A stretch of 64,000 bases of DNA from a virus. The position numbers and the translations under genes are program-made. The DNA lies in the IMG/VR virus record IMGVR_UViG_3300013102_000032, positions 1 through 64,000 of that record; one strand, given 5' to 3'. Positions 9,136 to 63,445 of this stretch are shown here, one piece after another; the stretch's first letter is position 1, and every line of letters starts with the position of its first letter. The notes under the pieces were generated by a model. The model saw only the letters and a list, made by a program, of their open reading frames with translations. It did not search any database and was not told the DNA's origin.

Positions 9136-9279
9136 ATGGATTGGTTTACAAGTATTAAAAAGTTCTATCCTAAGTATTGGGATAAGAAAATGGTTGGAGA
9201 TGCTGTTGTTGCAAAGAAAATAACAGAAGAACAATATTTTGAGATAGTTGGAGAAGAATACGTTTCTCCTACTGTATAA
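9136..9279 (+). CDS. XkdX-family small protein (47 aa, not in ORF track)
   Basis: Translated by hand: MDWFTSIKKFYPKYWDKKMVGDAVVAKKITEEQYFEIVGEEY, with the typical IT.EQY.EI.GE.Y motif. Confidence 0.8.
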   Translation: MDWFTSIKKFYPKYWDKKMVGDAVVAKKITEEQYFEIVGEEYVSPTV

Positions 9280-9293
9280 AATATAGATTTTAT
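9276..9293. repeat. Junction motif ATAAAA-TATAGA-TTTTAT
   Basis: Contains the stop codon of the XkdX-like gene. Confidence 0.75.
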
Positions 9294-9421
9294 CAAGAAA
9301 TAAATGTCAGATAAATACAAAAACATAGTTAAAATGCAACAAATAATTAACACATCACTCTCCTACTTTGATACTTTAGACACATATTATAGAGTGATAA
9401 AAATACTAGGAGGAAATAATA

Positions 9422-10102
9422 ATGACAAATTTTATTTATATTACGCTAGACACTACAGCTCCGTCTAATCCAAGTATCAAAGTAGAAGGAGATGCTATAT
9501 TCACCACAAGTCAATTAGTAACACTGACAATAGGAACTGGCGATTCGGTTACTACTAATTACCAAATGAAAATTTGGGGAGATGTTGACACCGCTTACAA
9601 TGCTAATATAAAAGGGACAGAAGTACTATCTAACTGGATTCCATATAACGCTAGTCAACAAATTAAATTATCTACTATAGATGGAACAAAAAATGTAAAT
9701 CTAAAAATTAGAGACGATGTACATAACGAATCTTCTATATCTACTGATAGTATTAAATTAGATACTAAAATACCAACAGTAACAGCTACTAGTGCAGATG
9801 TTTCAAAGATTTCAAAAATCGTAGGGAAAGATACATTCTCATTCACATTTAGCTCAGATAAAGATATCTCAGAATACAAAGTTAAACTTGTTGGATTAAC
9901 TAATGCTACTCATGATACTGGAAATTTAATTCCAACTACTAATGGCTCTGTTAATACAAGTGGGGTTGTTACTATATTGGAAGGTCAAGTTACTACTGTA
10001 ACTATTAAGGCTAAAGATCTGGAATTAGCAGGAGCTTCAACAGATGGTCAAAAAGTTGTAAAAATATTTGTAAGAGATGCATTAAACAATTGGAGTGCAT
10101 AA
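9422..10102 (+). CDS. Ig-like virion structural protein
   Basis: LDTTAP and VRDALNNW Ig-like motifs; RBS GGAGG. Confidence 0.6.
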   Translation: MTNFIYITLDTTAPSNPSIKVEGDAIFTTSQLVTLTIGTGDSVTTNYQMKIWGDVDTAYNANIKGTEVLSNWIPYNASQQIKLSTIDGTKNVNLKIRDDVHNESSISTDSIKLDTKIPTVTATSADVSKISKIVGKDTFSFTFSSDKDISEYKVKLVGLTNATHDTGNLIPTTNGSVNTSGVVTILEGQVTTVTIKAKDLELAGASTDGQKVVKIFVRDALNNWSA

Positions 10103-10119
10103 TCTAAGGAGAGGGTGGC

Positions 10120-10557
10120 ATGTCAAGTTTTGTTTTAATTGAATTAGATACAAGAGCTCCAGAGGTAGAAATATATGCACCTTCATACTCAGCTACAAAT
10201 ATAACTAATAATATTATTGTGAAGTCAGATGAGAATTTGTCTGACTTCCAAGAAATATATTTGATAGATAGTGAAGGTTTAAGATATGATTACACATTTA
10301 AAAAAGATAAAAACGACACCCTAATAGGAAGTGTTAATTTTCCAAATGATGGCATAGTGACTATATATGCTAGAGTAGAAGATGAAGTTGGTAATATTTC
10401 TGAACTATATAGCAAATCAATTAATATCAAAGAGTCTTTATCTTTATTAAGATTGGAAATTAAGGACAAAGGTATGAATATTAATACTGATAACAAGGTA
10501 GCAAATACATATATAAAAGAACATGTTAGAGATATAAAAATAAAAGAGGTGCTTTGA
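10120..10557 (+). CDS. Ig-like virion structural protein
   Basis: LDTRAP...VEDEVGN motif; operon context. Confidence 0.55.
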   Translation: MSSFVLIELDTRAPEVEIYAPSYSATNITNNIIVKSDENLSDFQEIYLIDSEGLRYDYTFKKDKNDTLIGSVNFPNDGIVTIYARVEDEVGNISELYSKSINIKESLSLLRLEIKDKGMNINTDNKVANTYIKEHVRDIKIKEVL

Positions 10558-10558
10558 T

Positions 10559-10852
10559 TTGGGAAAAAGTAATATTAGTACATATCAGTATGGTAATACA
10601 GTTAGATTTGAATGCACATTTTATAATTTCAATAACGAGAAAGTAAATCCAGATTTAGTAAAGGTTATAGTTTATAATTACAAATATGAAATACTGTTAG
10701 AAGAGATTATAAATAGCGGTATTAATATTGGCGAATATATGTATGATTACACAACAGGAGATAAATCTGAAAAATTGTACTATGAATGGTATGGAGAGAT
10801 TGACGGAAATCCATCTATCAAGCGTAAAGAGTTTCAAACTAGATTTATATAA
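10559..10852 (+). CDS. Hypothetical structural protein
   Basis: ORF coupled within the tail operon. Confidence 0.5.
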   Translation: MGKSNISTYQYGNTVRFECTFYNFNNEKVNPDLVKVIVYNYKYEILLEEIINSGINIGEYMYDYTTGDKSEKLYYEWYGEIDGNPSIKRKEFQTRFI

Positions 10853-10866
10853 TTGGAGGCATTTTT

Positions 10867-11163
10867 ATGAAATATTCTATTAAGGGTTCTACATTTATAA
10901 GCGATGGTACAGAGATTATAATTACTATCAATAAATATAAAATATGGAAATTATTACAATCGAATGGAAAGAGCTTAATAACAGACGATGACATATTCGA
11001 TTTTGAGGTATGGGTAAATGCTCAAGAAGATAAAGACATGTTGTTTAACGATTTAAAAACGTTTATCAATTCATATGGTGGAAATATTAATTGGCATGAA
11101 TGTAAACATGATGAAGACAGTAATGAACCTTGTGTAATAAAAGAATCATACAGAGGTGAATAA
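10867..11163 (+). CDS. Hypothetical protein
   Basis: ORF with RBS GGAGG. Confidence 0.5.
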   Translation: MKYSIKGSTFISDGTEIIITINKYKIWKLLQSNGKSLITDDDIFDFEVWVNAQEDKDMLFNDLKTFINSYGGNINWHECKHDEDSNEPCVIKESYRGE

Positions 11164-11165
11164 GC

Positions 11166-18768: not shown

Positions 18769-19407
18769 TTGAAAATGAGTATAAATGAAGAGAAAAAGTT
18801 TCTATATTCGATTCTTGAAAATATCACAGAGGAAAGAAAAAAATTAACTAATGCTTATTTGGATATCGTTAATAAAATTACAGAGCTAGAAAAAGAGTCT
18901 AGAAGTTATAGAGAACAGAGTGAGACGAAAGACGCTGTAGAAAAAGTTCAGAATATAGAATTTAAAAAAGAAGCTAAGACACCAAGCATAATGATTGAAG
19001 AGATAGTAGAGGCTGAGCCTGTTGAGGTTACTAAGAAAGAAGATGTGAGAACCTTAGCAGAAATAATAGAAGAACATAATAGAATGCGTGGAGAATCAGA
19101 CGATAAGCCAGATGAATTATCAGAGAGTAAAATACCAAAAGAAGAAATAGAAAGAGAAAAAGATAAACTACCTAGAAAGTCTCCGTATTTGAATATTGAT
19201 AAAGTGAATGGATTGATATCTCAGATATTAAAAGAAAAGGGCTCTCCTATGCATGTAAAGGAGATATTTGCTAAATTAAATTCTATGCTAGATAACGATG
19301 TTAATATTCAGAATCTACGCAATAACATTCTTCCTAGAGTGTGTAAGAGTAATCCTAAAATAGAAAGAGCATTGCGTGGTTATTATCAATATAATTATAA
19401 TGGATAA
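18769..19407 (+). CDS. Rok-like nucleoid-associated DNA-binding protein
   Basis: N-terminal coiled coil (SINEEKKFL..ILENI), low-complexity linker, C-terminal winged helix ending PKIERALRGYY, recalling B. subtilis Rok PEVKKPYRGQY (compared from memory). Confidence 0.6.
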   Translation: MKMSINEEKKFLYSILENITEERKKLTNAYLDIVNKITELEKESRSYREQSETKDAVEKVQNIEFKKEAKTPSIMIEEIVEAEPVEVTKKEDVRTLAEIIEEHNRMRGESDDKPDELSESKIPKEEIEREKDKLPRKSPYLNIDKVNGLISQILKEKGSPMHVKEIFAKLNSMLDNDVNIQNLRNNILPRVCKSNPKIERALRGYYQYNYNG

Positions 19408-19421
19408 AATTACACTTTTAT
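19404..19421. repeat. Junction motif ATAAAA-TTACAC-TTTTAT
   Basis: Contains the stop codon of the Rok-like gene. Confidence 0.75.
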
Positions 19422-33632: not shown

Positions 33633-33650
33633 ATAAAATTCCTATTTTAT
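33633..33650. repeat. Junction motif ATAAAA-TTCCTA-TTTTAT
   Basis: Immediately upstream of the RBS of 33153..33617. Confidence 0.75.
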
Positions 33651-35365: not shown

Positions 35366-35584
35366 CTATAATCTAGTTAAATCGAAAGGAGTAGCTTCTC
35401 TTTGTGCTATGATAGCAAATAACTCCTGTTCATGACTGTCATTAAGACATTGGTATGTTGCAATACTTTTAACCATCTTCATTCCAAAAACATTTATAAA
35501 TTCTCTTTTGCTATTCCAATAAATGCCTTTATCACCGCATCTAGGACATTTGTTTTCGTTCACACGCCAAACGGTTAAATCCAT
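35366..35584 (-). CDS. Small putative zinc-binding protein
   Basis: CPRC...C...H; RBS GGAGA. Confidence 0.6.
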   Translation of the reverse strand: MDLTVWRVNENKCPRCGDKGIYWNSKREFINVFGMKMVKSIATYQCLNDSHEQELFAIIAQREATPFDLTRL

Positions 35585-35601
35585 TACATCATCTCCAATT
35601 C

Positions 35602-35619
35602 ATAAAATTCAGTTTTTAT
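35602..35619. repeat. Junction motif ATAAAA-TTCAGT-TTTTAT
   Basis: Contains the stop of 35616..35846 and precedes the next RBS. Confidence 0.8.
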
Positions 35620-35846
35620 CTAATTGTCATTCTTTCAATGTGAAAAGGATAAGTACCTTCTGAGTATTCTGCACAAGTTTCACAATCGAAACAATTAACT
35701 TTAAAGCCTAAAGGTTTTAGCTTTTCGTTAATGTAGCTTTTTTCTTCTTCGGTTATGATTCGTTTAATACTTCCTTCAACAGTACAATTACTCTTTTCAC
35801 TCATAGCTTCATCTAGAAAGCCTTGCAAAGCACTATCTAATTTCAT
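35616..35846 (-). CDS. Hypothetical cassette protein
   Basis: 76 aa ORF bounded by motifs at 35602 and 35862. Confidence 0.6.
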   Translation of the reverse strand: MKLDSALQGFLDEAMSEKSNCTVEGSIKRIITEEEKSYINEKLKPLGFKVNCFDCETCAEYSEGTYPFHIERMTIR

Positions 35847-35861
35847 ATGTCCACCCCATTC

Positions 35862-35879
35862 ATAAAATTGAGTTTTTAT
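35862..35879. repeat. Junction motif ATAAAA-TTGAGT-TTTTAT
   Basis: Contains the stop of 35876..36022. Confidence 0.8.
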
Positions 35880-36022
35880 ACATTTGTGTCTTTTATTCTA
35901 ATTTTCAATATATCCAATGTATCTATAACTCCTTGTGCGAATCCTTCTCCCCATGCACCATCATAAGGGTCAACATCAATTAATTCTAGCAACTGTTTTC
36001 GTTGTTCTTCTGTAATCTGCAT
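35876..36022 (-). CDS. Hypothetical cassette protein (48 aa, not in ORF track)
   Basis: MQITEEQRKQLLELIDVDPYDGAWGEGFAQGVIDTLDILKIRIKDTNV; RBS AGGGTG. Confidence 0.65.
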   Translation of the reverse strand: MQITEEQRKQLLELIDVDPYDGAWGEGFAQGVIDTLDILKIRIKDTNV

Positions 36023-36036
36023 ATTATCACCCTTTC

Positions 36037-36054
36037 ATAAAAGTAAACTTTTAT
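36037..36054. repeat. Junction motif ATAAAA-GTAAAC-TTTTAT
   Basis: Contains the stop of 36051..36200. Confidence 0.8.
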
Positions 36055-36200
36055 CTATCATAATCCTTTACGATTACTTCTGCTTCATCAAGCCATTCAC
36101 TTATATCGCCATATGAATCGTGAGGAATATCGCCATGCGACCTTAAATCATCGACTTCATTTCTAATATTGTTGATTAATTTTAATAATTCACCTATCAT
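36051..36200 (-). CDS. Hypothetical cassette protein (49 aa, not in ORF track)
   Basis: MIGELLKLINNIRNEVDDLRSHGDIPHDSYGDISEWLDEAEVIVKDYDR; RBS GGAGGGTG. Confidence 0.65.
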   Translation of the reverse strand: MIGELLKLINNIRNEVDDLRSHGDIPHDSYGDISEWLDEAEVIVKDYDR

Positions 36201-36213
36201 ATTGTCACCCTCC

Positions 36214-36231
36214 ATAAAAGTAAATTTTTAT
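36214..36231. repeat. Junction motif ATAAAA-GTAAAT-TTTTAT
   Basis: Abuts the stop of 36232..36462 and the next RBS. Confidence 0.8.
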
Positions 36232-36462
36232 CTATTGTTTCCATCTGTCTAATTCGTCTTGATAGTTAGAAATTACAGTATCGAAGCCATTCGACAATTT
36301 ACCTATCACATCTTTACGATGAATATCTTCTGTCCAAATACACTTAGGAAACCAATACTTCCTAGGTTTGTACAACTTATATTTGTACATTGGCGTTATA
36401 GAATCTCCCCAAAATGACACCTTGATTATAAACCCTTTATATTCTTCTTTCATTGTCATCAC
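36232..36462 (-). CDS. Hypothetical cassette protein
   Basis: ORF bounded by motifs at 36214 and 36469. Confidence 0.6.
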   Translation of the reverse strand: MMTMKEEYKGFIIKVSFWGDSITPMYKYKLYKPRKYWFPKCIWTEDIHRKDVIGKLSNGFDTVISNYQDELDRWKQ

Positions 36463-36468: not shown

Positions 36469-36486
36469 TTAAAATTAAGATTTTAT
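36469..36486. repeat. Junction motif TTAAAA-TTAAGA-TTTTAT
   Basis: Overlaps the stop of the HD hydrolase gene. Confidence 0.75.
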
Positions 36487-37184: not shown

Positions 37185-37213
37185 ATTATATCATTATTAA
37201 AAGCTTTTGTCAA
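37185..37213 (-). promoter_or_regulatory. Sigma-A promoter driving the HD hydrolase and the cassette array
   Basis: TTGACA-17-TATAAT with ATAATG. Confidence 0.78.
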
Positions 37214-43522: not shown

Positions 43523-43524
43523 AA

Positions 43525-43791
43525 TTATTCGTTCTCCTTAACTGTAACAGTTCCCTCAAACACTCCAAATACTGAATCCGCTTGGAATTTATATTCCTTT
43601 GGCTCATATCCTTCTTCCATAGGCTCTGTAAGATACCATATGGTATCATCTTTCCAAGTTATATTGATAAGTTTTTCGCCTTGTGGCAATTCTACATCAT
43701 AATCTCCACCAAAGCTTTTAGCTCCTATTTGACTACATCCTGTTGCTAACAATGTTGATGCGATTAATAATGTTAATATAATTTTTTTCAT
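43525..43791 (-). CDS. Lipoprotein
   Basis: Lipobox LATG-C. Confidence 0.72.
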   Translation of the reverse strand: MKKIILTLLIASTLLATGCSQIGAKSFGGDYDVELPQGEKLINITWKDDTIWYLTEPMEEGYEPKEYKFQADSVFGVFEGTVTVKENE

Positions 43792-43792
43792 A

Positions 43793-44416: not shown

Positions 44417-44429
44417 GTTTATCACTCCC

Positions 44430-45092
44430 TTACATTCTCTCTGATAAGTAATCATAAGCTTTTTTAAGCTTTTTAAAGTTGGCTTCTAGACCGCCAACAT
44501 CTGGATGATGTATTTTAGAAAGCTTTCTATATGAAGACTTTAAATCACTAGCAGTAAATCCATCTTGAAGACTCATAAGCTTCATAGCATTAACTCTATT
44601 ATTGTCTACTGTTCTTTGTTGCGTATAGCTTTGTTGTCGTTGGTTCTGTTGTTGTTTTTGTTGTTGCCGTTGATTATTAATATGATCTCTCAATAGTCTT
44701 TCAAACAACTCGTCCATCTCTCTTTGTTTACGCTCTTCATCCCATTTACGTAGTTGCTCTTCATACTCTCTCATTCTACGTTGTTCTGCTTTCTCATACT
44801 CGACATATTCTTCTTCCTTTTTCTTTCTGTCTCTTGTAATCTTGCTATCTCTAAGATAGAATACATATGATGTATTTAGTAAAATGACAGGAATAAATAG
44901 AAATAAATATACAATAAGACTAGGAAACATTATTAATGATGAGATTAAATATGCAAACATAAATATAAATGGCGTTAAATTAATATAGAAAGCAGTGTTA
45001 TCATCCATAACATCTTCATATATCTTAGGACTTCTTCTTATTACGTTGTAGTAAAATCTGAAAAATGAAAAAATAGGTGATTCAAATTTCAT
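44430..45092 (-). CDS. Membrane-anchored J-domain (DnaJ-like) protein
   Basis: Two TM helices, coiled coil, C-terminal YRKLSKIHHPDVGG...KAYDYL. Confidence 0.85.
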   Translation of the reverse strand: MKFESPIFSFFRFYYNVIRRSPKIYEDVMDDNTAFYINLTPFIFMFAYLISSLIMFPSLIVYLFLFIPVILLNTSYVFYLRDSKITRDRKKKEEEYVEYEKAEQRRMREYEEQLRKWDEERKQREMDELFERLLRDHINNQRQQQKQQQNQRQQSYTQQRTVDNNRVNAMKLMSLQDGFTASDLKSSYRKLSKIHHPDVGGLEANFKKLKKAYDYLSERM

Positions 45093-45107
45093 TTGCGTTC
45101 ACTCCTT

Positions 45108-45275
45108 CTATTCGTGTTTTAGTAAGCTCTTTATATACCAATGTAACTCTAATTCGATATTTGCCATTCGAATATTACGCTCCAGTAATTGTTCTACAGA
45201 TTCTTTAATTGCTTCTTTTGCTTTGTTTAAGATTGCAATATCTTCTTCGTCTAAGATATGTTTTCCATCGATCAT
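45108..45275 (-). CDS. Hypothetical protein (55 aa, not in ORF track)
   Basis: MIDGKHILDEEDIAIL...; RBS GAGGTG. Confidence 0.55.
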   Translation of the reverse strand: MIDGKHILDEEDIAILNKAKEAIKESVEQLLERNIRMANIELELHWYIKSLLKHE

Positions 45276-45284
45276 AATTTCACC

Positions 45285-45542
45285 TCATTTAACACATCCG
45301 TAAATATTGGTCTTGCCTTGTTTATCTACGATTATATATTCTCCGTCAATCTTTTCACAATCATTTCTATTATCTTTATGCGACATTGATGACGCTATTA
45401 CTAAAGCGAATACTACCGCAAAACCAAATGCTATAACTAATCCCACAGACATATAAGTATAGTCAACAGGTGTTTTATTCTTTTCTTTCCATTCTTTTAA
45501 CTCACGTTTTTTTCTCTTTTGATATTCATATCCGTCTAGCAT
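45285..45542 (-). CDS. Small membrane protein
   Basis: Single TM helix. Confidence 0.6.
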   Translation of the reverse strand: MLDGYEYQKRKKRELKEWKEKNKTPVDYTYMSVGLVIAFGFAVVFALVIASSMSHKDNRNDCEKIDGEYIIVDKQGKTNIYGCVK

Positions 45543-45577
45543 TTATGTTTCACCGCCATCCTATAATTTTCAACTGT

Positions 45578-45595
45578 ATAAAAGAGTCGTTTTAT
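45578..45595. repeat. Junction motif ATAAAA-GAGTCG-TTTTAT
   Basis: Context actgtataaaa-N6-ttttatcaa matches the 9276 copy. Confidence 0.75.
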
Positions 45596-45600
45596 CAATT

Positions 45601-45638
45601 TTTAAGTACCATATAATTCGAATTATATGGTACTTAAA
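45601..45638. terminator. Perfect hairpin after gmk
   Basis: tttaagtaccatataattcgaattatatggtacttaaa. Confidence 0.7.
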
Positions 45639-45647
45639 GTGTTAATT

Positions 45648-46190
45648 TTAATATTGTTTCGCAATATTAATCAATATATCAACAGTTTTTCCACTTTTAC
45701 CTCGTACATTTTTTACAACATAATCAAACTCGCCCTTATTAGAAATTTCCTCATCATATGTAGAAATTCTTCTCAATGCTTTTTCTAAAGAGTCGCCACG
45801 CAACAACATATTAGCCATGCAATCCTCTTTGCTCATATGTAGGAAGATCCCTACTGCATCTGGATACAATCTTTTAATCTGACTATAGCCATTGTATTCT
45901 GCAATAATAAATACATGTGCAGATTTATCCATTACTCTAGCAATCTCTTCATGAGAGATAGCATACTTGTAACCGTCATACTCTACATATTCAGCAAACT
46001 TTCCGCCTTTTAGATTTTCATCAAACGTCTGGTCTTTAACAAAATAATAAGTCTTCCCATCGATTTCACCTTTTCTAATAGGTCTTGTAGTATGAGAAAT
46101 ACATTCACTCCATACATTTAACTCTGACACTCTATGAGATAACGATGTCTTACCGCTTCCACTTGCACCAACTATAACAAATAATGACAT
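45648..46190 (-). CDS. gmk: Guanylate kinase
   Basis: GASGSGKT, SHTTRPIRKGEIDGKTYYFV. Confidence 0.9.
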   Translation of the reverse strand: MSLFVIVGASGSGKTSLSHRVSELNVWSECISHTTRPIRKGEIDGKTYYFVKDQTFDENLKGGKFAEYVEYDGYKYAISHEEIARVMDKSAHVFIIAEYNGYSQIKRLYPDAVGIFLHMSKEDCMANMLLRGDSLEKALRRISTYDEEISNKGEFDYVVKNVRGKSGKTVDILINIAKQY

Positions 46191-46202
46191 ATATATCTCT
46201 CC

Positions 46203-46424
46203 TTATTTACGATTCTTCCTACGTGATGCTTTAGCTAATTTACGTCTTGCTTTTGTCTTTGCTTTAGTCTTATTACTTACTTTATTAATTCCATTGACAT
46301 TCTTTAATCCTTGTTTAAATAACGCCATCGTTTCATCAAATGTCATACCTTCTTCGTCAGCAATTCCTTGAATTATCTCTTCTAATGTTTGATTCTCTTT
46401 TGGCAATACTTGTTCTTTTTCCAT
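46203..46424 (-). CDS. Small protein with basic C-terminal tail
   Basis: KARRKLAKASRRKNRK; RBS. Confidence 0.6.
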   Translation of the reverse strand: MEKEQVLPKENQTLEEIIQGIADEEGMTFDETMALFKQGLKNVNGINKVSNKTKAKTKARRKLAKASRRKNRK

Positions 46425-46451
46425 TGTAACATCTCCCTCTCTTATACTACT

Positions 46452-46480
46452 ATTATATCATTATTTTTATCTTTTGTCAA
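46452..46480 (-). promoter_or_regulatory. Sigma-A promoter
   Basis: TTGACA-17-TATAAT with ATAATG. Confidence 0.78.
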
Positions 46481-46486
46481 GCGTTT

Positions 46487-47023
46487 TTAAAATGGTAAGT
46501 AATTCCAATCGTAACTATTCTTAAATGTAGTTACCGTAGGCTTTCCTTCCCAATCTCCAGAAACATTTCTTTTTCCATACTTGACCATATTCTCTAATTG
46601 CTCCTTGTTTAATATTGCAAACTCTGGAGTATCTGTTTCCCATCCTAACACAATCAAGACATCTGCATTTTGTTCTATGTATGATTTGATAAGATTTAAC
46701 TTCAACCTAAATTTCAATAGATTGTGCTTTATAATCTTAACCTCCATAGGCTTTCCATTTACAATAAAGTCGGCATCATCTTTAACCTGTGTAACCTCTA
46801 TAAATTCTCCAGAGTTATCGACACCGTTATCAACAACGTCTAAATCTTTACCTGTTTTAGATTTATAAAACTTGGCATAACGATTTATAACTTCTCTTTC
46901 ATTTGTATGTCCTTGTTTTATATCTTCTTTAAACTGTTCATATGTACGACCAGATAGCCGTCTGTACTCAGCCTTATCTACACCTTCGTGATGCTCTATC
47001 AAATGTGCATTTGTAACCCTCAT
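46487..47023 (-). CDS. Putative PD-(D/E)xK nuclease
   Basis: G..NE...DADF......EVK pattern. Confidence 0.55.
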   Translation of the reverse strand: MRVTNAHLIEHHEGVDKAEYRRLSGRTYEQFKEDIKQGHTNEREVINRYAKFYKSKTGKDLDVVDNGVDNSGEFIEVTQVKDDADFIVNGKPMEVKIIKHNLLKFRLKLNLIKSYIEQNADVLIVLGWETDTPEFAILNKEQLENMVKYGKRNVSGDWEGKPTVTTFKNSYDWNYLPF

Positions 47024-47050
47024 CCTATCACACTCCTTTTATATAAATCT

Positions 47051-47079
47051 ATTATATCATTATTCTTTATACTTGTCAA
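47051..47079 (-). promoter_or_regulatory. Sigma-A promoter
   Basis: TTGACA-17-TATAAT with ATAATG. Confidence 0.78.
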
Positions 47080-47121
47080 TAGAAAAAGAAGAGATAAATT
47101 AATATCTCTTCTTTAAATTAA

Positions 47122-47913
47122 TTACTTACCACTTTGACCAAGCATAGTTTTTCCACGCTCAGATTCAATATCTTGTAATTTATCATATGTAATTTCGCTA
47201 ACAGTTGCTTTTGGCACTAGATCAACTGTTCCTTGTGCGATTGCCTTTGAAAGCGGATAGTATATGTATTTCTCATCTTCTTCTACTTTATCTACTAAAC
47301 TTGAAATGACAACTGATTTGCGTAATGGAGTTAATGCAATAAACATTTCATTACGGAATCCACTATCGACAACACCTGCAAGTACGCTCATAGACTGCAC
47401 TCCTGTACTACCTCGCTCATGCTTCAAGTTTAGATAATGAGTATTCGGCATCGCCACCGCTAATCCTGTTGGTACTAATGTCGTTGTTAATACAGGGCAT
47501 AATGCCTCGTAGTAAACAGTTCCATCTTCTAACTTGTTTGGGTAAGCTTCTAAATTAGCATAGATGTCATACCCTGCATCCTCATCACGCTTAGATGGAA
47601 TAATTGCATCTTCACGTACCTTTGCAAAGTATACTTGTGGATAGAAGATATTATTAATTAACTTGATAGCTTCATCTATCTTGTTTCCACCTGTAGATTT
47701 TACTAGCTTTTCTTTAGCAGAATACTTTAACTTGTCGAAGCCCCACATTTTATCTGTGTGTTCTTTTGTTTCGTTGCCGTCTTTATACGTTACAGTCATA
47801 GTTAAGTCTTCTTTGTTGATACTCTTAACTTTTCCTTCTTTTTTCAGCTCAACAATCCATACAACCTCGCTATCTTTGTAGAATCGTTTTTGTTTTTTAT
47901 TTTCGTTTGTCAT
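47122..47913 (-). CDS. dut: Trimeric dUTPase with N-terminal extra domain
   Basis: AGYDI, ERGSTG, GVVDSGFR, AIAQG, RG...GQSG. Confidence 0.88.
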   Translation of the reverse strand: MTNENKKQKRFYKDSEVVWIVELKKEGKVKSINKEDLTMTVTYKDGNETKEHTDKMWGFDKLKYSAKEKLVKSTGGNKIDEAIKLINNIFYPQVYFAKVREDAIIPSKRDEDAGYDIYANLEAYPNKLEDGTVYYEALCPVLTTTLVPTGLAVAMPNTHYLNLKHERGSTGVQSMSVLAGVVDSGFRNEMFIALTPLRKSVVISSLVDKVEEDEKYIYYPLSKAIAQGTVDLVPKATVSEITYDKLQDIESERGKTMLGQSGK

Positions 47914-47972
47914 TGTGGAATTTCCCCTTTTGTTTTAATTAATAATAGAGTAGACTATTTATCTACTCTATT

Positions 47973-48001
47973 ATTATATCATTATTTTTTGCGACTGTCA
48001 A
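47973..48001 (-). promoter_or_regulatory. Sigma-A promoter
   Basis: TTGACA-17-TATAAT with ATAATG. Confidence 0.78.
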
Positions 48002-48025
48002 AGTATCATGCTACGTTTTTATTAA

Positions 48026-49000
48026 TTAATAATCATAATCACTATCTCTCATTGATTCTGCAGGCGACATAAGGTATCCATTACCAACCGAAGAAAAGAA
48101 GTCATGATTAGATGTACTTGTAGACAATCCATTTAGTACGATTGGATTTATATCATTTGCACCCTCTGGAAATAAAGGAGATAAGCCTAGGTTCATTAAA
48201 GCTTTATTCGCATTATATCTAAGGAATACTTTTACATCTTCTGTCCAACCAATTTCATCATATAGATACTCAGTGTACTTTGCTTCATTTTCGTATAGTT
48301 TATAGAGTAATGAGTAAGCCCATGCCGACAGTTCATCTTGCTCTTCCTTACTTAGCTCTTTAAATCCTAACTTAAACTTATAACCAATATATCCACCATG
48401 CTCTGACTCATCACGAATTATCAATCTAATAACTTCCGCTACGTTCATCAAAGTTTTATTTCCTAAGTAATATAGTGGAGTATAGAAACCACTATAAAAC
48501 ATAAACGACTCTAGGAATACACTTGCTACCTTCTTCTGTAGAGGCGTTCCGTTTTGATAGATGTCATCGATGATAGTAGCTTTATTTTGAAGAAACTCAT
48601 TCTCAGTGATCCATTCGAAAATGTCACGAATTTCTTTGTTGGTATTCAATGTACTATAGATAGAAGAGTAACTTCTTGCATGTTCTGTTTCCATCCACTG
48701 TATTTGATTTAATACATCGACTTCCATATCAGTTCTAGCATCATCACGAAGAGATGCTACGCCACTACGAGATTGTAGTGTGTCTAACAATGTTAATCCA
48801 CCAAAGACTTTCTCTACCAAACGCTTCTCAACGTCTGGTAGCTTACTCCAATCCGACTTATCTTTCGACACTGGCATACGTGTTGAAAACCATGTCTGAG
48901 CAGTCAGTTTCTCATATGTAATCTTATCAACTATATCTTCTACTGCATTCCAGTTTACACCTTCATACACCTTTAATTCTTGCAGTTCTTTCATTGCCAT
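48026..49000 (-). CDS. nrdF: Ribonucleotide reductase class Ib beta subunit
   Basis: GLTLLDT, EHARSYS, FLESFMFYSGF, IIRDESEH, NHDFFS. Confidence 0.95.
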   Translation of the reverse strand: MAMKELQELKVYEGVNWNAVEDIVDKITYEKLTAQTWFSTRMPVSKDKSDWSKLPDVEKRLVEKVFGGLTLLDTLQSRSGVASLRDDARTDMEVDVLNQIQWMETEHARSYSSIYSTLNTNKEIRDIFEWITENEFLQNKATIIDDIYQNGTPLQKKVASVFLESFMFYSGFYTPLYYLGNKTLMNVAEVIRLIIRDESEHGGYIGYKFKLGFKELSKEEQDELSAWAYSLLYKLYENEAKYTEYLYDEIGWTEDVKVFLRYNANKALMNLGLSPLFPEGANDINPIVLNGLSTSTSNHDFFSSVGNGYLMSPAESMRDSDYDY

Positions 49001-49014
49001 TTCCGTTTTCCTCC

Positions 49015-51201
49015 TTAGATTGAGCAGTTAGCACATTCATTTACTGATACTGATTCACTTCCGTCATCAGTATAGGTACGAATATAGTAAATACTCTTAA
49101 TACCATGTTTCCAAGCGTAGTTTCTAAGGATACTCAAATCTCTTGTAGTTTTTGTAGTCGGATACTCACTGCCAACTTTCCACTCATACATTCCTTCTGG
49201 TAGTTCTGACCTCATAAACATAGTCATCGATAAACCTTGGTCTACGTGTTTCTGTGCCGTTGCATAAATATCGATTATTTTTCTTTGGTCGATATCGTAA
49301 GCCATTGTATAATATGGAATTGTTTCATCTGACAAGTATGGTGCAGGGTAGTAAACCTTACCACGCTTACCTTCTACCCTTTCCTCAATACGTTGAGTAA
49401 TCGGATGAATACTTGCCGTAGCTTCATTCACATAAGATATACTTCCAGTAGGAGCTACCGCTAATCTATAAGCATTGTAAATTCCATGCTCCATAACTGA
49501 TTCTTTTAATGCTTTCCAGTCCTCAATAGTTGGAATATAAATTCCTTTAAATAACTTCTTAACTACTTCAAGTTGTGGCGTATATTCTTTTTCTAGATAC
49601 ATATTGAAGTATTCGCCAGTAGCATATTTAGACTTATCAAAATCAACGAATGTCTCTTTTCTCTCAATAGAGATGTTATTGCTCTCTACTAGAGTCCAGT
49701 AATTAAGCAACAAGAAGTAGATGTCTACAAATTCGATAGACTCTGGCGAGCCGTAATGTATCTTATTTTTAGCTAAGTAGCCATGTAAATCCATAGCTCC
49801 AAGACCTGTTGAATGATTTCTATTATTGCCGTTTACAACAGATGGCACTACGTCTACATTAGAGCTATCTGAAACTTGAGTTAAGGCTCTATGCATTACT
49901 CTAATAGATTTTCCAACGTCTTTTGATGCCATTAGATTAGTTGTATTTGTTGATGCAAGGTTACAACTAATATCATATCCTAACTCTTTATAAGTTTGGT
50001 CATTATTAATTACAGAATCTTTCATTACTTGAAAAATTTCTGTGCATAAATTACTCATAGTGATAATTCCGTTAATAGGATTAGCACCGTTCGCAGTATC
50101 TATATTAATAATATATGGATATCCACTTTCATTTTGAAGATTACTAATTTCTTGTTCTAAGTCACGAGCTTTGACTTTAGATTTTCGAATGTTAGGATTA
50201 TCAACCATATTGTCATACTCTTTTGTGATATCTACATTAGAGAATGGTACACCGTATTCTTTCTCTACATCATGAGGACTGAATAGATACATGTCAGAAT
50301 TTTTCTTAACAAGTTCGTAGAATTTGTCTGGCACTACTAACCCTAATGATAATGTTTTGATACGAGTTTTCTCATCTGCATTTTCTTTTCTTACAGATAG
50401 AAAGTCAACAACGTCTGGATGGAATATGCTTAAGTAAACTACTCCTGCTCCGTCTCTTGCTCCGCCTTGATTAGCGTAAGAGAAAGCATCTTCTAGAATC
50501 TTCATGATTGGTACTATACCATCAGCAAGACCTAGTACACCTTTGATTGGATCGTTGTTGGCACGCACGTTGGTAAGCACTACTCCTACACCGCCACCTA
50601 TTTTAGATAGTTGCAATACAGAGTTCTGCAGTCTGCCGATACTATTCATGTTATCGCCTACAGTCAATAGGAAGCATGACACCATTTCCCCTGCTCTCTT
50701 CTTGCCTGCGTTCAAAAATGTGGGTGTTGCAGGTTGGAATCGTTGATTAATAAGTTCATCGGCAATATCCAATGCCAACTCTTCACTACCATTAGCTAAA
50801 AGCATGGCATTAAAAGCCAGTCGGTCTTCAAATCTCTCTAAAAACAACTTCTTATCATCTGTTTTCATTGCGTATTGTTCATAGAATTTATACGCACCCA
50901 TAAAAGAGCGGAATCTATGCTTCTTGTTGTATATTTTTTGGAATAGTTTTTTTACAAACTTTCTATCGTACATTTCTACTAAATTCTTATGTATGTAATC
51001 ATTTTCTACTAAGTAGTCTAACTTCTCATCAAGCGTATGGAAAAACATTGTATGCGTATTCACATACTCTAAGAAGTAAGCCTTGACTGCTTCTTTGTCT
51101 TTATCTAACTGAATCTTTCCATCCTTGGGAATATTAATTAAGTTATTCAACTTAAAATATGTATCCTCTTTAGCCTTACTCTTTAACTCTGGTGATTTCA
51201 A
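49015..51201 (-). CDS. nrdE: Ribonucleotide reductase class Ib alpha subunit
   Basis: QPATPTFLN, SCFL, SNLCTEI, APTGSISY, YYIRT, C-terminal CxxC. Confidence 0.96.
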   Translation of the reverse strand: MKSPELKSKAKEDTYFKLNNLINIPKDGKIQLDKDKEAVKAYFLEYVNTHTMFFHTLDEKLDYLVENDYIHKNLVEMYDRKFVKKLFQKIYNKKHRFRSFMGAYKFYEQYAMKTDDKKLFLERFEDRLAFNAMLLANGSEELALDIADELINQRFQPATPTFLNAGKKRAGEMVSCFLLTVGDNMNSIGRLQNSVLQLSKIGGGVGVVLTNVRANNDPIKGVLGLADGIVPIMKILEDAFSYANQGGARDGAGVVYLSIFHPDVVDFLSVRKENADEKTRIKTLSLGLVVPDKFYELVKKNSDMYLFSPHDVEKEYGVPFSNVDITKEYDNMVDNPNIRKSKVKARDLEQEISNLQNESGYPYIINIDTANGANPINGIITMSNLCTEIFQVMKDSVINNDQTYKELGYDISCNLASTNTTNLMASKDVGKSIRVMHRALTQVSDSSNVDVVPSVVNGNNRNHSTGLGAMDLHGYLAKNKIHYGSPESIEFVDIYFLLLNYWTLVESNNISIERKETFVDFDKSKYATGEYFNMYLEKEYTPQLEVVKKLFKGIYIPTIEDWKALKESVMEHGIYNAYRLAVAPTGSISYVNEATASIHPITQRIEERVEGKRGKVYYPAPYLSDETIPYYTMAYDIDQRKIIDIYATAQKHVDQGLSMTMFMRSELPEGMYEWKVGSEYPTTKTTRDLSILRNYAWKHGIKSIYYIRTYTDDGSESVSVNECANCSI

Positions 51202-52174: not shown

Positions 52175-53665
52175 TTAATAATATGCTTCTATTAAACCTT
52201 TTTCTTCTGCCCATTCTTTTATAAATTCCTTCTCTTCTTCTCTGACTGGACGATTAGCAAATCCTCTTGCTTGACGTATATTAAAACCACGTACTTCAAT
52301 CGTAGCTAATGGTTTGTCAATTTCTTCTACATCACGTAAGAATAGAATCTTACATTTATCGCTAATAATATCTTTAGAGTAAGAAGCGACACAATGGGAT
52401 AGCTGATTTCCTTCTTTCATAAGGTCTTCGGAAGACTGTGGAGATACAATCGCATATTTACTCTTTTTCTTTTCATAGACTAGATTTTTATAAGATTTTT
52501 TATCTACAGACAACTTAAATAACTTATGTTGCTCTTTTCCGTCATTAATTAGCTTGTAGTTCATCTGTACGACATCATGCTCTTTCTTGAGAGATTTAGG
52601 GTATTTCTCATAATCTAATCCCATACTTCTAGACATTCGTATGTAATCTCTTAAATATGTACAAGCGTTCGTGGGCGACTCGATCCCTTGAGTTAATCTA
52701 CATTCTCTAAACAGGTATAATACTAGTTTTTTGATATTAGTATAATCATAGTCAACATGAATTTGCATCAGTCTCTCTATAGTATTAGAAAGTTCTTTGA
52801 TGTTACTTTCATCTTTGACTATAGCCATGATATCTTGAAACTTGTTATTATCAAGATGCTTGAAGTGTCCTTGAAGCTCTTGTAATACTCTTCTGTCAAT
52901 AGAAATATCTTCTCTAATATAAGACATCATGAATCTAGGCACTTTAAGTATCTCATGAGGTTTTGTCTTAGTTGTATCTACTAAAGTATCTGCAGTTCCA
53001 CTACGATAATGATTTCCTCTAAAGAATCTATTAACGTTTGGCACACCTGCATTTGCTAATATTTGCAACCAACTATGCTCATCCGCCATAAGCCTAATTA
53101 GACCTCTCATTATATTATTCTTTTTATTATAGCTAACGTGAGATAAGCTATTAACAACTTTATAAAGACCCTCTGTAACCTCTGTTGATATATATTGAAT
53201 AAATGCACTATCATCTAAACCAGTAAAAAACAATCTATTGGTATCGTCTAATCTATTATATCTTACATTGTCTGCATCATAGTCGTACTCAACCTCATCA
53301 TTTCTCCACACTTTAAGAGTTTTATCTACGATATCATACTCCATCTCTCGCTTAAGGTTCTCTTTTAAAGTAATCAGAAATCCTTCATCATACCTAATGC
53401 TTAAGTTTGTACGCTTTATTTTAAAACCACGATTATCTCTTCTAGAATACTCTAGATACGGAATAACAAATCTACCGCTATTGTTACAGTGCTTTCGATC
53501 AACAAAGTAATCGTTCTTACAACCTTCGCATTGTATTTTATTATCATAATAGCCATTTATTAAAGTATGTACTCCACAACTGCATACACCCACAGCTTGA
53601 TGGTATCGATTATTCCTTTTAACTATAATACCAAATCTATAATTGTCAGTTAGAGACTTGCTCAT
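52175..53665 (-). CDS. PcfJ-domain protein
   Basis: DYIRM, PKSLKKEHD, EG..LSHCVASY, Q.RG..N motifs; N-terminal Cys pairs. Confidence 0.82.
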   Translation of the reverse strand: MSKSLTDNYRFGIIVKRNNRYHQAVGVCSCGVHTLINGYYDNKIQCEGCKNDYFVDRKHCNNSGRFVIPYLEYSRRDNRGFKIKRTNLSIRYDEGFLITLKENLKREMEYDIVDKTLKVWRNDEVEYDYDADNVRYNRLDDTNRLFFTGLDDSAFIQYISTEVTEGLYKVVNSLSHVSYNKKNNIMRGLIRLMADEHSWLQILANAGVPNVNRFFRGNHYRSGTADTLVDTTKTKPHEILKVPRFMMSYIREDISIDRRVLQELQGHFKHLDNNKFQDIMAIVKDESNIKELSNTIERLMQIHVDYDYTNIKKLVLYLFRECRLTQGIESPTNACTYLRDYIRMSRSMGLDYEKYPKSLKKEHDVVQMNYKLINDGKEQHKLFKLSVDKKSYKNLVYEKKKSKYAIVSPQSSEDLMKEGNQLSHCVASYSKDIISDKCKILFLRDVEEIDKPLATIEVRGFNIRQARGFANRPVREEEKEFIKEWAEEKGLIEAYY

Positions 53666-60596: not shown

Positions 60597-60857
60597 CTAA
60601 TCTTTTTTCATTACAATTTCTAATCTATATCCTAATGCTTCTGCTAATTTATATAACGTTGAAAATGAAGGAATGTCTACACCGTTCTCAATTCTTGAAA
60701 TAGTCTTTTGTGCCACAGTTGATAGTTCTGATAGTTTTCTTTGAGATATACCTTTTTCTGTTCTTATATCTATGATTTCACCAACAAGTTCAAGTTTTGC
60801 GTATAGTTCGCCATCAGTGTTTTTTAAAGCTTCTTTGATTTCTTCAAAAGTGCTCAT
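60597..60857 (-). CDS. XRE/HigA-like HTH protein (probable start MSTFEE)
   Basis: GISQRKLSELSTVAQKTISRIENG...TLYKLAEALG; RBS GGAGTG. Confidence 0.85.
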   Translation of the reverse strand: MSTFEEIKEALKNTDGELYAKLELVGEIIDIRTEKGISQRKLSELSTVAQKTISRIENGVDIPSFSTLYKLAEALGYRLEIVMKKD

Positions 60858-60904
60858 GAAATATTCACTCCTTCGTAGTTTGTGTCTACTGTGCAATACG
60901 ATTG

Positions 60905-60922
60905 ATAAAATTGATGTTTTAT
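60905..60922. repeat. Junction motif ATAAAA-TTGATG-TTTTAT
   Basis: Flanked by G...C, extending the palindrome. Confidence 0.7.
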
Positions 60923-62591: not shown

Positions 62592-62619
62592 CTCTTATTT
62601 TATAGAATTTTACTAATCT

Positions 62620-62838
62620 TTAATAGTATCTCTTTTCAATTTTAATATAATCATATTCAACTTCATCTTCTTTTGAAAGTTTAACATGTAGTGCAATTTC
62701 TGTTTCATTTGGATAAAAATCGAAAGGAATAGACTCTTCTACAATTCCTTTTCCGATAAATTTATTTCGCCAATGTCCACCAATAAGCATGTCTATAAAT
62801 ATATTTCCGTAATAACAGATTACAAATTTCTCCTTCAA
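62620..62838 (-). CDS. Hypothetical cassette protein
   Basis: TTG start with RBS GGAGG right after motif 62854. Confidence 0.55.
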   Translation of the reverse strand: MKEKFVICYYGNIFIDMLIGGHWRNKFIGKGIVEESIPFDFYPNETEIALHVKLSKEDEVEYDYIKIEKRYY

Positions 62839-62853
62839 ATTTATTCCTCCTAG

Positions 62854-62871
62854 TTAAAATGAGAATTTTAT
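62854..62871. repeat. Junction motif TTAAAA-TGAGAA-TTTTAT
   Basis: Contains the stop of 62868..63128. Confidence 0.78.
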
Positions 62872-63128
62872 TCATCTATTCTTAATTCTAATGCTTGCCT
62901 CCAACAGTTATAACATTGTAAAGATTGTGCTTGCCATCCATGCACATCTTCCTTTTCACACAATCCTTCAAAATCATCAAGTCCAAAGTTCATTGGACAC
63001 CCTGCTAAAATTGATAAGTCACCATTTTTAATATCTTTCTCATTATCTAAACAGTTCTGTAAATGTTCAATATCATGAGTTTTAATAGTCTCGCAATAAT
63101 TTAGAATAACATCTTTTCCTGTTTTCAT
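62868..63128 (-). CDS. Cys-rich hypothetical cassette protein
   Basis: GCP...C...CYNCW; bounded by motifs. Confidence 0.6.
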   Translation of the reverse strand: MKTGKDVILNYCETIKTHDIEHLQNCLDNEKDIKNGDLSILAGCPMNFGLDDFEGLCEKEDVHGWQAQSLQCYNCWRQALELRIDE

Positions 63129-63142
63129 ATCTTCACCCCTTA

Positions 63143-63160
63143 TTAAAATAGAAGTTTTAT
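63143..63160. repeat. Junction motif TTAAAA-TAGAAG-TTTTAT
   Basis: Between the stop at 63165 and the next RBS. Confidence 0.78.
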
Positions 63161-63164
63161 CAAT

Positions 63165-63413
63165 TTATCGTCTTATGTATTCTTGTCTTCCACTAGCGTA
63201 GTATTTTACTTCTTTATACATAGGGTCATCTAGTTTTTCTACTCTCAAAACTATATTATCTTTATGCCTGTCTCTATTAACAATTGCTTGACAAGGGTTC
63301 TCTTTGGTGCAAGTGCATTTTGATTTATTCACATACCCTTGCCCACCTTCTTTTGCATAGCAGAATTTATTTTCTTTTACTATTTTTTGTATCATATCAA
63401 GTATCTCGCTCAT
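63165..63413 (-). CDS. Hypothetical cassette protein
   Basis: ORF bounded by motifs; Cys cluster. Confidence 0.6.
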   Translation of the reverse strand: MSEILDMIQKIVKENKFCYAKEGGQGYVNKSKCTCTKENPCQAIVNRDRHKDNIVLRVEKLDDPMYKEVKYYASGRQEYIRR

Positions 63414-63427
63414 AGCTTTCCTCCTTT

Positions 63428-63445
63428 ATAAAACTCGCATTTTAT
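63428..63445. repeat. Junction motif ATAAAA-CTCGCA-TTTTAT
   Basis: Contains the stop of the methylase gene. Confidence 0.78.

Follow-up and report, generated by a model that had tools for sequence, protein, structure and literature searches.

Introduction

The stoperators of Cluster A mycobacteriophages (L5 gp71, Bxb1 gp69) are asymmetric 13-mers that lie in one orientation and vary with immunity group. T4-type PeSL elements are promoter plus stem-loop units, and the attC sites of integrons, 57-141 bp long, are recognized in a folded, single-stranded form and move together with the upstream open reading frame (ORF). In the SPbeta lineage, the element SPBRE is bound by MrpR; chromatin affinity purification followed by sequencing (ChAP-seq) is reported to have given ten MrpR peaks, all at SPBRE (PMC10516654). 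Here we describe another repeated element, WTAAAA-N6-TTTTAT, found at 13 gene junctions of a 64,000-nucleotide stretch of viral DNA (hereafter the window; positions 1 to 64,000 of IMG/VR record IMGVR_UViG_3300013102_000032). The element proved to be widespread among SPbeta-like phages, with invariant arms and a different six-base core at each site, and with unrelated genes often standing behind the same core in different genomes. We tentatively favour the view that these palindromes are addressed crossover or boundary sites read by a phage protein with the tyrosine-recombinase fold.

Results

The motif marks gene boundaries in the window

A pattern scan returned WTAAAA-N6-TTTTAT at window positions 9276, 19404, 33633, 35602, 35862, 36037, 36214, 36469, 45578, 60905, 62854, 63143 and 63428, that is, all 13 copies, with the same cores, that an initial annotation of the window had picked out by eye. 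Counted strand by strand these make 23 matches, as ten of the sites are hit in both directions and the other three in a single one, whereas 100 dinucleotide-preserving shuffles of the window gave a mean of 0.30 matches and a maximum of 4, none of the 100 reaching 23. The rough early estimate had been fewer than one chance copy per 64 kb. The window comprises bases 1-64000 of a single 72,608-bp contig, itself part of a ~165-kb genome; four further sites lie beyond it (contig positions 67100, 67553, 67966 and 70081), bringing the contig total to 17, or to 18 once W is permitted at both ends. The contig is listed for one rhizosphere metagenome run and for no RNA dataset. The N6 spacer is strict, since in the contig N5, N7 and N8 gave no match and N4 gave one. 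Motif variants with one or two mismatches showed no excess over block shuffles, and relatives hold copies that have decayed through single-nucleotide indels. An origin of the motif by chance or base composition is ruled out by the shuffles, the backwards-pattern controls and the spacer controls.

The sites are placed with respect to genes much as the initial annotation described. The TAA stop codon of the upstream gene lies inside seven of them (9276, 19404, 35602, 35862, 36037, 62854 and 63428), three others (36214, 36469 and 63143) abut a stop or nearly so, and a ribosome-binding site (RBS) or start codon follows within 2-17 nt at 10 of the 13; at 45578 and 60905 the distance to the RBS is ~30 nt. 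By a crude ORF caller that marks 94.6% of the contig as coding, thirteen of the 17 contig sites include at most four coding bases, and the remaining four sit in over-extended or spurious ORF calls. The junctions of the nrd, thy and dnaE genes in the window indeed lack a site. Genes run on the plus strand up to ~19.4 kb (tail and lysis genes) and on the minus strand from there to the end and, when oriented by gene direction, the window sites read aaTwG-ATAAAA-N6-TTTTAT. Outside the arrays of small ORFs, the gaps between window sites measure 10.1, 14.2, 11.9 and 15.3 kb.

The motif is shared across SPbeta-like phages

The nearest relatives are the ~165-kb Bacillus siphophages PJN02, FADO, Kirov, Thrax, PBC2 and BcoS-136, whose DnaE proteins are 67-72% identical to that of the window. 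The phage collection contained no relative closer to the window than these, and viral_contigs none for the HD hydrolase; three metagenome loci at 60-64% identity are without a motif site. PJN02 has 28 forward and 31 reverse motif matches, against 0 and 1 for the backwards control, and FADO, Kirov, Thrax3 and BcoS-136 have 30, 21, 21 and 14, with all backwards controls at 0. Counted per genome as WTAAAA-N6-TTTTAW, sites number 33 in SPbeta (SPBc2), 30 in phi3T, 27 in pW2, 28 in Geobacillus virus E3, 16 in Staphylococcus phage PhiSepi-HH3, 35 in Mammaliicoccus phage phi116 and 19 in C. difficile phage LIBA6276, where most read TTAAAA...TTTTAA; Lactococcus phage 949 has 2 and Lysinibacillus phage LC76P1 has 1. 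Across the 14 genomes scanned, N6 gives 16-35 copies in each of the 12 motif-bearing genomes and other spacers give 0-5. A de novo scan for 6-N-6 inverted repeats led to the same element: ATAAAA at N6 was the top family in every motif-bearing genome, and in 949 and LC76P1 the scan found no comparable N6 family, its sole entry being TATTAT at N3 (five copies, in 949).

In SPbeta, too, the sites lie between genes, as do 15 of the 19 sites of LIBA6276, and the SPBc2 record labels two of them (2622-2651 and 116406-116431) simply as stem_loop. The arms are invariant in phages of Bacillus, Geobacillus, Staphylococcus and Mammaliicoccus, and the Clostridioides version has its outer base changed. We regard the motif as ancient and as common to the SPbeta-like supergroup of large Firmicutes siphophages. 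It is not confined to one undescribed phage, being present in SPbeta itself. No published description of the palindrome was found in the searchable literature, whose coverage excludes the 1999 SPbeta genome paper and supplementary files.

As no more than a lead, the sites cover the genome more evenly than random sets of junctions do in E3, PhiSepi-HH3 and phi116 (P = 0.004-0.04); the same test found no excess evenness in PJN02, Kirov, Thrax3, BcoS-136, pW2, SPbeta and LIBA6276. In E3, PhiSepi-HH3, phi116, pW2, PJN02 and others, gaps between sites outside the small-ORF arrays cluster at 8-14 kb. In four genomes one palindrome lies, in frame, inside the ~9-kb tape-measure ORF (PJN02 51293, FADO 111644, Kirov 43906 and Thrax3 49043); there the arms are intact and the cores have diverged. 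The contig has no such site.

The element is a symmetric DNA site

Pooling 146 sites from six genomes, oriented by local gene strand, showed that the full element, TnGATAAAA-N6-TTTTATCnA, is palindromic over 24 bp. In each half-site, position -3 is T in 80-91% and position -1 is G in 52-62% of cases, and the outer core positions are T or A. The variable flank and core positions of 134 non-redundant sites showed no excess of complementary pairs beyond base frequencies, and arm variants with compensating changes were not enriched. The lack of covariation argues for recognition by sequence rather than by pairing. The element thus looks like a DNA site read by a symmetric protein pair, half by half. 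Its geometry, with inverted arms around a strict, asymmetric 6-bp spacer, is that of a tyrosine-recombinase site, as had been noticed at the outset. An RNA hairpin or an intrinsic terminator is ruled out by the missing covariation, the missing compensated variants and the all-A/T arms, and the first two of these also argue against a cruciform. At about half of the sites (74 of 146) an RBS follows the motif directly.

Cores are conserved as addresses while cargo turns over

Among 303 sites in 12 genomes, no two sites of one genome shared a core in either orientation, compared with 2.75 identical pairs expected (P = 0.06), and no core was palindromic, whereas composition predicts 5.8 (P = 0.0035). 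In many cases neighbouring sites are a single core base apart. Between genomes, with the PJN02-FADO pair excluded, 67 of 12,104 site pairs had identical cores; a hand calculation from the column frequencies of the 146 oriented sites gives ~8. In 55 of these 67 pairs neither 400-nt flank showed any tblastx homology.

Identical cores also recur in the same order. The series TCTTAA > [AT]TTTAC > GTTTAC > ACTCAA > ACTGAA, which runs from 36469 to 35602 in the window, is found partly or wholly in Kirov, Thrax3, BcoS-136, FADO, PJN02 and pW2, and the ORFs that follow the same core in different genomes (22-152 aa) are unrelated even at E = 10. A second series, TCTTAC > TTTCCA > methyltransferase > TGCGAG > CTTCTA, is common to the contig and PJN02, and the two methyltransferases that occupy the slot between TTTCCA and TGCGAG are not homologous (E = 0.034). 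These enzymes (~241 aa each; contig 63442-64167 and PJN02 111173-111898) have only the DPPY region in common, at different positions in the protein, and the corresponding slot of FADO holds two other genes between decayed copies of the same sites. With the same cores in the same order and the ORFs replaced, the sites behave as fixed, individually addressed boundary markers. They thus make up a conserved scaffold of addressed positions, between which the cargo is replaced. The comparison supports heavy turnover of cargo between fixed sites, but not the insertion and excision of units with a site of their own that the initial annotation proposed.

At SPbeta 131161 and PJN02 154953 the core TTCTAA, the RBS and the start of the small downstream gene agree without a mismatch, as far as 50 nt beyond the site. 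This identity points to a recent exchange of a site-plus-gene unit between the groups.

Mosaic boundaries are modestly enriched at sites

FADO and PJN02 share 97% identity across 92% of their length. The ends of their homology blocks lie within 20 nt of a site in either genome in 21 of 66 cases, compared with 24 of 271 for ordinary gene junctions; the enrichment of mosaic block ends at sites is thus no more than modest. For several blocks the end coincides exactly with the edge of a site, and where the order of two genes has been swapped, in one case, a site and a decayed copy mark the limits of the swap. The jump in identity is about twice as large across sites as across other junctions, both between FADO and PJN02 (median 0.025 versus 0.0125, P = 0.036) and between Kirov and Thrax3 (0.1075 versus 0.055, P = 0.026), with small n in both comparisons.

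In two records of laboratory-evolved phi3T x SPbeta hybrids, crossovers fall in intervals of parental identity of 31 bp to 18 kb. The three long intervals (3.3, 5.1 and 18 kb) each hold a site and are too wide to place the crossover; the two short ones flank a five-position patch without a site. Contigs of run X1 covering window positions 30000-49999 showed no joint at any site; as this run may be the source of the window itself, the absence is evidence neither way.

Candidate reader proteins

No recombinase is encoded in the window, as noted initially, or in the 72.6-kb contig, and yet every complete relative encodes three proteins with the tyrosine-recombinase fold, which are MrpR-, YopP- and YomM-like. 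Only 8 of the 261 PJN02 ORFs are present in all nine other motif-rich Bacilli genomes, and the sequence-specific DNA binders among these eight are just the three recombinase-fold proteins and the small terminase. The YomM-like protein is the sole one of the three present in all 11 complete motif-bearing genomes examined, and homologues of MrpR and YopP are missing from the motif-bearing LIBA6276. The YomM-like gene adjoins the tape-measure gene and, in the window's clade, its product has the R, K, HxxR, H and Y residues aligned to the archaeal XerA structure 4a8e. The MrpR homologue matches Pfam MrpR_N_CB (3e-23), MrpR_C_cat (4.5e-9) and PDB entry 8a0a (4e-16), and it is the only PJN02 ORF found in nine of nine other motif-rich Bacilli genomes and in none of LC76P1, 949 and LIBA6276. 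MrpR was nevertheless dropped as the reader, because LIBA6276 has the motif variant and no MrpR homologue and because the reported SPbeta ChAP-seq peaks fall only at SPBRE.

The Xer-like recombinase gene lies immediately upstream of the tape-measure gene at PJN02 42209-43195, 949 95220-96212 and pW2 70632-71615. Homologues of this tail-module recombinase are present in 120 phage records, and the searched literature yielded no described function for it.

Relation to promoters and to SPBRE

That the motif might be the SPBRE/MrpR operator had been raised from the start. This identity is ruled out, because the sequences differ and the reported MrpR ChAP-seq peaks all lie at SPBRE. The consensus of the 15-bp SPBRE, approximately ACAAAAAATATGTATA, was recovered from ten named upstream regions; it lies between a TAGACA -35 box and the -10 box and is unlike the palindrome. 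The contig has only three SPBRE hits, each with three mismatches. A second type of palindrome, (G)TCTCTATAGAGA(C), occurs 20-60 nt from several sites of the relatives, including one upstream of an MrpR-like gene (flanks of PJN02 81720, 136144, 147598 and 158862, Kirov 129436, Thrax3 137125 and FADO 55854). Some of its copies overlap a TAGACA -35-like hexamer, and it may be the clade's own MrpR operator.

Two promoter identities were also rejected. The late genes of SPbeta are reported to form one YonO-driven operon that starts upstream of yonK (PMC5467207); as no site lies at that start and the window's clade has no YonO homologue, the motif is not a YonO promoter. Nor is it a sigma-A promoter, since the arms are 6 bp apart and the array sites gave no promoter in scans. 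Three sites have a consensus -35 box 4-21 nt downstream of them, and several follow terminator-like hairpins.

Individual sites and neighbouring genes

Among the plus-strand genes of the window, the palindrome at 9276..9293 (core TATAGA, found also at SPbeta 24127) lies in the tail-fibre region, holds the TAA of ORF 9136-9279 and has no clear RBS after it. The one at 19404..19421 (core TTACAC) holds the TAA of a Rok-like gene, 18769-19407, and is followed by the bidirectional terminator of a convergent junction and by no gene; the same site-then-terminator placement is seen at Kirov 63589, Thrax3 67803 and BcoS-136 99710. The Rok-like protein (plus strand, 212 aa) has a C-terminal match to the Rok winged-helix family PF23159 (E = 9.5e-5; 22.9 bits, against a cut-off of 27.6), and PJN02, FADO, Kirov and Thrax3 have weak homologues at the corresponding position, in each case shortly before the orthologous site.

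Cores of the remaining sites are given in gene (minus-strand) orientation. The site at 33633..33650 (TAGGAA) lies ~20 nt after a hairpin with a T-run, and an AGGAGG RBS follows 2 nt on, leading into gene 33153-33617. Next comes an array of five sites in an operon headed by a consensus sigma-A promoter on the minus strand (37185..37213; TTGACA-17-TATAAT with TG, 12 of 12 matches). Its first site, 36469..36486 (TCTTAA; also in FADO, Kirov, Thrax3, BcoS-136 and pW2), has the downstream arm TTTTAA and overlaps the TGA stop of the HD-domain hydrolase gene 36486-37154. Site 36214..36231 (ATTTAC, one base from the neighbouring GTTTAC) abuts the TAG stop of ORF 36232-36462, and site 36037..36054 (GTTTAC) holds the TAA of ORF 36051-36215; in PJN02, FADO, Kirov and Thrax3 the core GTTTAC stands ahead of ORFs of 30-93 aa without similarity. 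Site 35862..35879 (ACTCAA) holds the TAA of ORF 35876-36022, its core being found ahead of unrelated ORFs in Kirov, Thrax3, BcoS-136 and pW2, and site 35602..35619 (ACTGAA; also at PJN02 138337 and pW2 132784) holds the TAA of ORF 35616-35846, with the next start 17 nt on. The five small minus-strand ORFs of this array (35366..36462; 76, 49-54, 48, 76 and 72 aa) thus have one junction palindrome ahead of each. In the five complete relatives a homologue could be detected for only one of them, 36232-36462, which has 40% identity to an ORF of FADO.

Site 45578..45595 (CGACTC) lies 8 nt after a 13-bp perfect hairpin, and its RBS is ~30 nt downstream. This hairpin, a perfect palindrome with 13-bp stems, AAGTACCATATAAT..ATTATATGGTACTT, is at about 45596-45640, just upstream of the site in gene orientation; at 45609-45630 two Logan contigs of run X1 meet with an overlap. 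Site 60905..60922 (CATCAA) stands upstream of an XRE-type helix-turn-helix (HTH) gene, whose product (60597-60860) matches HTH_3 at 7e-16. It begins 2 nt after the -10 element of a putative promoter, TTGACA-17-GTAAAT, that was picked out by eye and failed the rule of the scan.

The second array (62620..63413, minus strand) consists of small ORFs downstream of a methyltransferase, separated by three sites. Site 63428..63445 (TGCGAG) holds the TAA of the adenine methyltransferase gene, which runs from 63442 to contig position 64167; at PJN02 111159 the same core lies downstream of the non-homologous methyltransferase. Site 63143..63160 (CTTCTA; also at PJN02 110526 and FADO 2349) lies 5 nt after the TAA of ORF 63165-63413, and site 62854..62871 (TTCTCA) holds the stop of ORF 62868-63128, with an RBS 2 nt on; both have the downstream arm TTTTAA. 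Strong consensus promoters are found at 37213-37185, 34095-34067, 33148-33120 and 61637-61609. From 37185 to 35366 the promoter scan gave no other match of at least 11, and scans found no strong internal sigma-A promoter in either array (36469-35602 and 63428-62854), in keeping with the early description of promoterless small-ORF units.

Two further minus-strand genes of the window deserve mention. The 496-aa product of 52175-53665 has a C-terminal PcfJ-like domain (PF14284, 1.1e-27) and among the relatives is common to BcoS-136 only. The 158-aa product of 28791-29267, kept in all five complete relatives and annotated in PJN02 as 'transposase', combines an HTH resembling sigma-70 region 4 or HTH_23, just under the Pfam cut-offs, with a Cys-rich C-terminal segment.

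Discussion

Proposed addressed crossover or boundary sites

What could the palindrome be for? The reading we favour, at somewhat less than an even chance, takes the palindromes for crossover or boundary sites, each with an address of its own, that are recognized by a phage protein with the tyrosine-recombinase fold. One of the conserved recombinase-fold proteins would bind the arms, the YomM-like tail-module enzyme being the first candidate. Exchange would be completed only between copies with the same core, whether the two copies belong to one genome or to co-infecting relatives. Core matching would keep the ~30 sites of a single genome from deleting one another, and cargo would be swapped slot by slot between relatives. 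We infer the reader protein, strand exchange at the site and any role in cyclisation or module exchange. We prefer this reading because the arms are invariant across heteroimmune phages, the asymmetric cores are conserved, one site lies within the tape-measure ORF and others precede terminators. Invariance of the arms across host genera is unlike the behaviour of an immunity operator.

The more specific proposal, that the palindromes make up a multi-site addressed recombination system run by the YomM-like tail-module recombinase, is rather unlikely to hold. Since the asymmetric core differs at every site of a genome, recombination would be limited to the two copies of one site. If such a system exists, headful-packaged, permuted genomes could be circularised via a site in the terminal redundancy, or replicating genomes could be multimerised; sites in every module, the tape-measure site and the clustering of gaps at 8-14 kb would fit such a role. 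Mixed infections would then exchange modules precisely at gene boundaries, leaving ordered cores and unrelated cargo.

Several observations weigh against addressed crossover sites. Between FADO and PJN02, 45 of the 66 mosaic block ends lie away from sites. A single unaligned flank is only slightly commoner at sites than at other junctions (15% versus 12%, 23% versus 9%, 35% versus 28% and 30% versus 26%). The three insertions examined (fado_62, fado_18 and an eight-gene insertion in PJN02) carry a site on one side only, and at the other end there is TGATAA/TGAATAA microhomology (4-6 nt) or no site. Avoidance of long perfect palindromes could by itself explain why no core is palindromic, and the conservation of identical cores could arise from short-homology recombination without a dedicated enzyme. 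Among the candidate readers, SPbeta YomM and the entire YopP family have Lys in place of the second catalytic Arg (HxxK). The virulent Lactococcus phage 949 has a YomM-like protein (54% identical) and a YopP-like one (41-42%) and yet only two sites; with 949 and LIBA6276 as exceptions, the presence or absence of no protein matches the motif perfectly. Four further points of the same tendency concern transcription and the downstream gene, and they also speak for the main rival.

Dispersed operators as the main rival reading

According to this rival, which we regard as unlikely but serious, the palindromes are dispersed, stoperator-like operators at which a phage DNA-binding protein, with the YopP-like protein as candidate, would block or tune transcription of the operon. 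The turnover of cargo would be a by-product, the sites being the sole conserved sequence available for relaxed homologous recombination. The four points are these. PJN02, FADO, Kirov, Thrax3 and BcoS-136 have an orthologous site behind the tail-tube gene whose core is itself a -35 hexamer (TTGACA, TTGAAG or TTGAAA), followed after 17 nt by TGnTATAAT, so that the arms frame the -35 of a consensus promoter in five genomes and a protein bound there would cover it. Site 60905 and the SPbeta yosX site cover the expected transcription start point. In a by-eye count, for which PJN02 and FADO are not independent, the TTTTAA variant occupies the downstream arm 31 times and the upstream arm six times, a bias that points to a link with transcription. 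Where pairs of sites with identical cores have one homologous flank, this is the downstream one in six cases and the upstream one in one, so the core goes with the downstream gene. The arrays without strong internal promoters suit an operator as well, as does the placement between stop codon and RBS, which is the same as that of the L5 and Bxb1 stoperators. MrpR provides a precedent in the SPbeta lineage for a repressor with the recombinase fold, and yopP, yopQ and mrpR are reported to be active in lysogens (PMC10516654; bioRxiv 10.1101/2021.11.22.469490). However, phages of at least four host genera, SPbeta and phi3T included, have the same 12 arm bases, whereas an immunity operator would be expected to diverge. 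The palindromic site also differs from stoperators, which are asymmetric and orientation-dependent. Sites after the last gene before a terminator, a site inside the tape-measure ORF and the lack of any fixed distance to promoters fit an operator poorly, and the conservation of cores and the absence of palindromic ones would go unexplained. The ten reported MrpR ChAP-seq peaks, all at SPBRE, likewise count against it.

A possible host factor or RNA-level signal

It is improbable, to a degree well beyond the operator, that the element is read by a host factor or acts at the RNA level, with, for example, an endoribonuclease that attacks the polycistronic mRNA in the gaps from gene to gene, the alpha subunits of RNA polymerase or a nucleoid protein as the reader. 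Such a reader would account for arms that stay invariant although the phage proteins have diverged to 23-30% identity. It would also suit the position between stop and RBS and the bias of the downstream arm relative to transcription. With A/T tracts spaced by one helical turn, the element is reminiscent of UP-element or bending sequences, and three sites lie shortly before -35 boxes; the G ahead of ATAAAA calls to mind the preference of RNase Y for G. Yet the motif is lineage-specific and nearly absent from 949 and LC76P1, whose hosts share the general machinery. The sites show no pairing covariation, a stem of six A/U pairs would have a stability of ~0 kcal/mol by a hand estimate, and symmetric flanks make no sense for a single-stranded signal.

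Unlikely readings: integron-like cassettes and phage-specific promoters

The initial annotation had interpreted the motif as the recombination site of an integron-like system, in which promoterless RBS-ORF-stop units with a 3' site are inserted and excised as circles by a recombinase. We now consider this very unlikely. The arrays do have one ORF per interval behind one promoter, adjacent sites do differ by one base, and one gene inserted in FADO lies between a perfect site (7170) and a copy that lacks one base (7420), the two having related cores. However, the core stays with the slot or with the downstream gene rather than with the upstream ORF; together with the single-site insertions and the many block ends away from sites, this makes the integron analogy fail. 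In addition, the annotation tables of the window and PJN02 list no intI-like gene, attI or Pc beside the arrays, although no IntI-specific search was made. A promoter specific to a sigma factor or RNA polymerase of the phage, or else a site for an activator, is the least probable of the five readings: the motif does stand directly ahead of an RBS at half of the pooled sites and several sites do follow terminator-like hairpins, but it is symmetric, has no conserved -10 or -35 element at a fixed distance, points straight into a terminator in two groups of orthologous sites and is missing from the reported YonO operon start upstream of yonK (PMC5467207), YonO having no homologue in the window's clade. 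The remaining probability goes to some explanation beyond these five.

Implications

SPbeta is a model temperate phage of B. subtilis 168, and among its relatives are phages that infect B. anthracis/cereus, staphylococci and C. difficile. A gene-boundary motif in which 12 bases are invariant, and of which each genome has ~15-35 copies, would be a missing piece of the biology of this group, if indeed undescribed. It offers a testable purpose for YomM and YopP; the covered passages of the SPbeta literature assign no function to YopP and do not mention YomM. Were the addressed sites to be crossover points, they would provide a molecular mechanism for modular phage evolution and for the handling of permuted genomes without host recombination. 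Should they prove to be roadblock operators, the stoperator principle would hold for phages of Firmicutes as well.

Comparison with known systems

The palindrome resembles the core sites of tyrosine recombinases (loxP/Cre of P1, dif/XerCD and FRT/Flp), having inverted arms of ~9 bp around a strict, asymmetric 6-bp spacer. As in those sites, the inner arm bases are the most conserved, and Xer-like genes are present in every complete motif-bearing relative. Unlike loxP, dif and FRT, of which there are one or a few, it occurs ~30 times per genome, at gene boundaries and with a spacer of its own at each site. With stoperators it shares tens of copies in the short stop-to-start gaps of long operons; it differs in being palindromic and invariant across genera, with site-specific spacers and an orientation bias only in its outermost base. 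SPBRE and its reader MrpR (YopR) belong to the same lineage; that element is dispersed too, its reader has the tyrosine-recombinase fold, and an MrpR homologue is present in all motif-carrying relatives that infect Bacilli. However, SPBRE has another sequence and is confined to about ten early promoters, whereas the ~30 palindromes of SPbeta lie elsewhere. T4-type PeSL elements and the lambdoid 'linker' sequences resemble the palindrome in being short, conserved, placed between variable small ORFs and at mosaic boundaries, and possible substrates of recombination; compared with PeSL, the palindrome contains no sigma-A promoter and has a distinct, conserved spacer in each copy. Finally, like attC, it is palindromic and lies 3' of promoterless ORFs in arrays behind one promoter, but it is only 24 bp long, is apparently read as sequence and stays with its slot or with the downstream gene.

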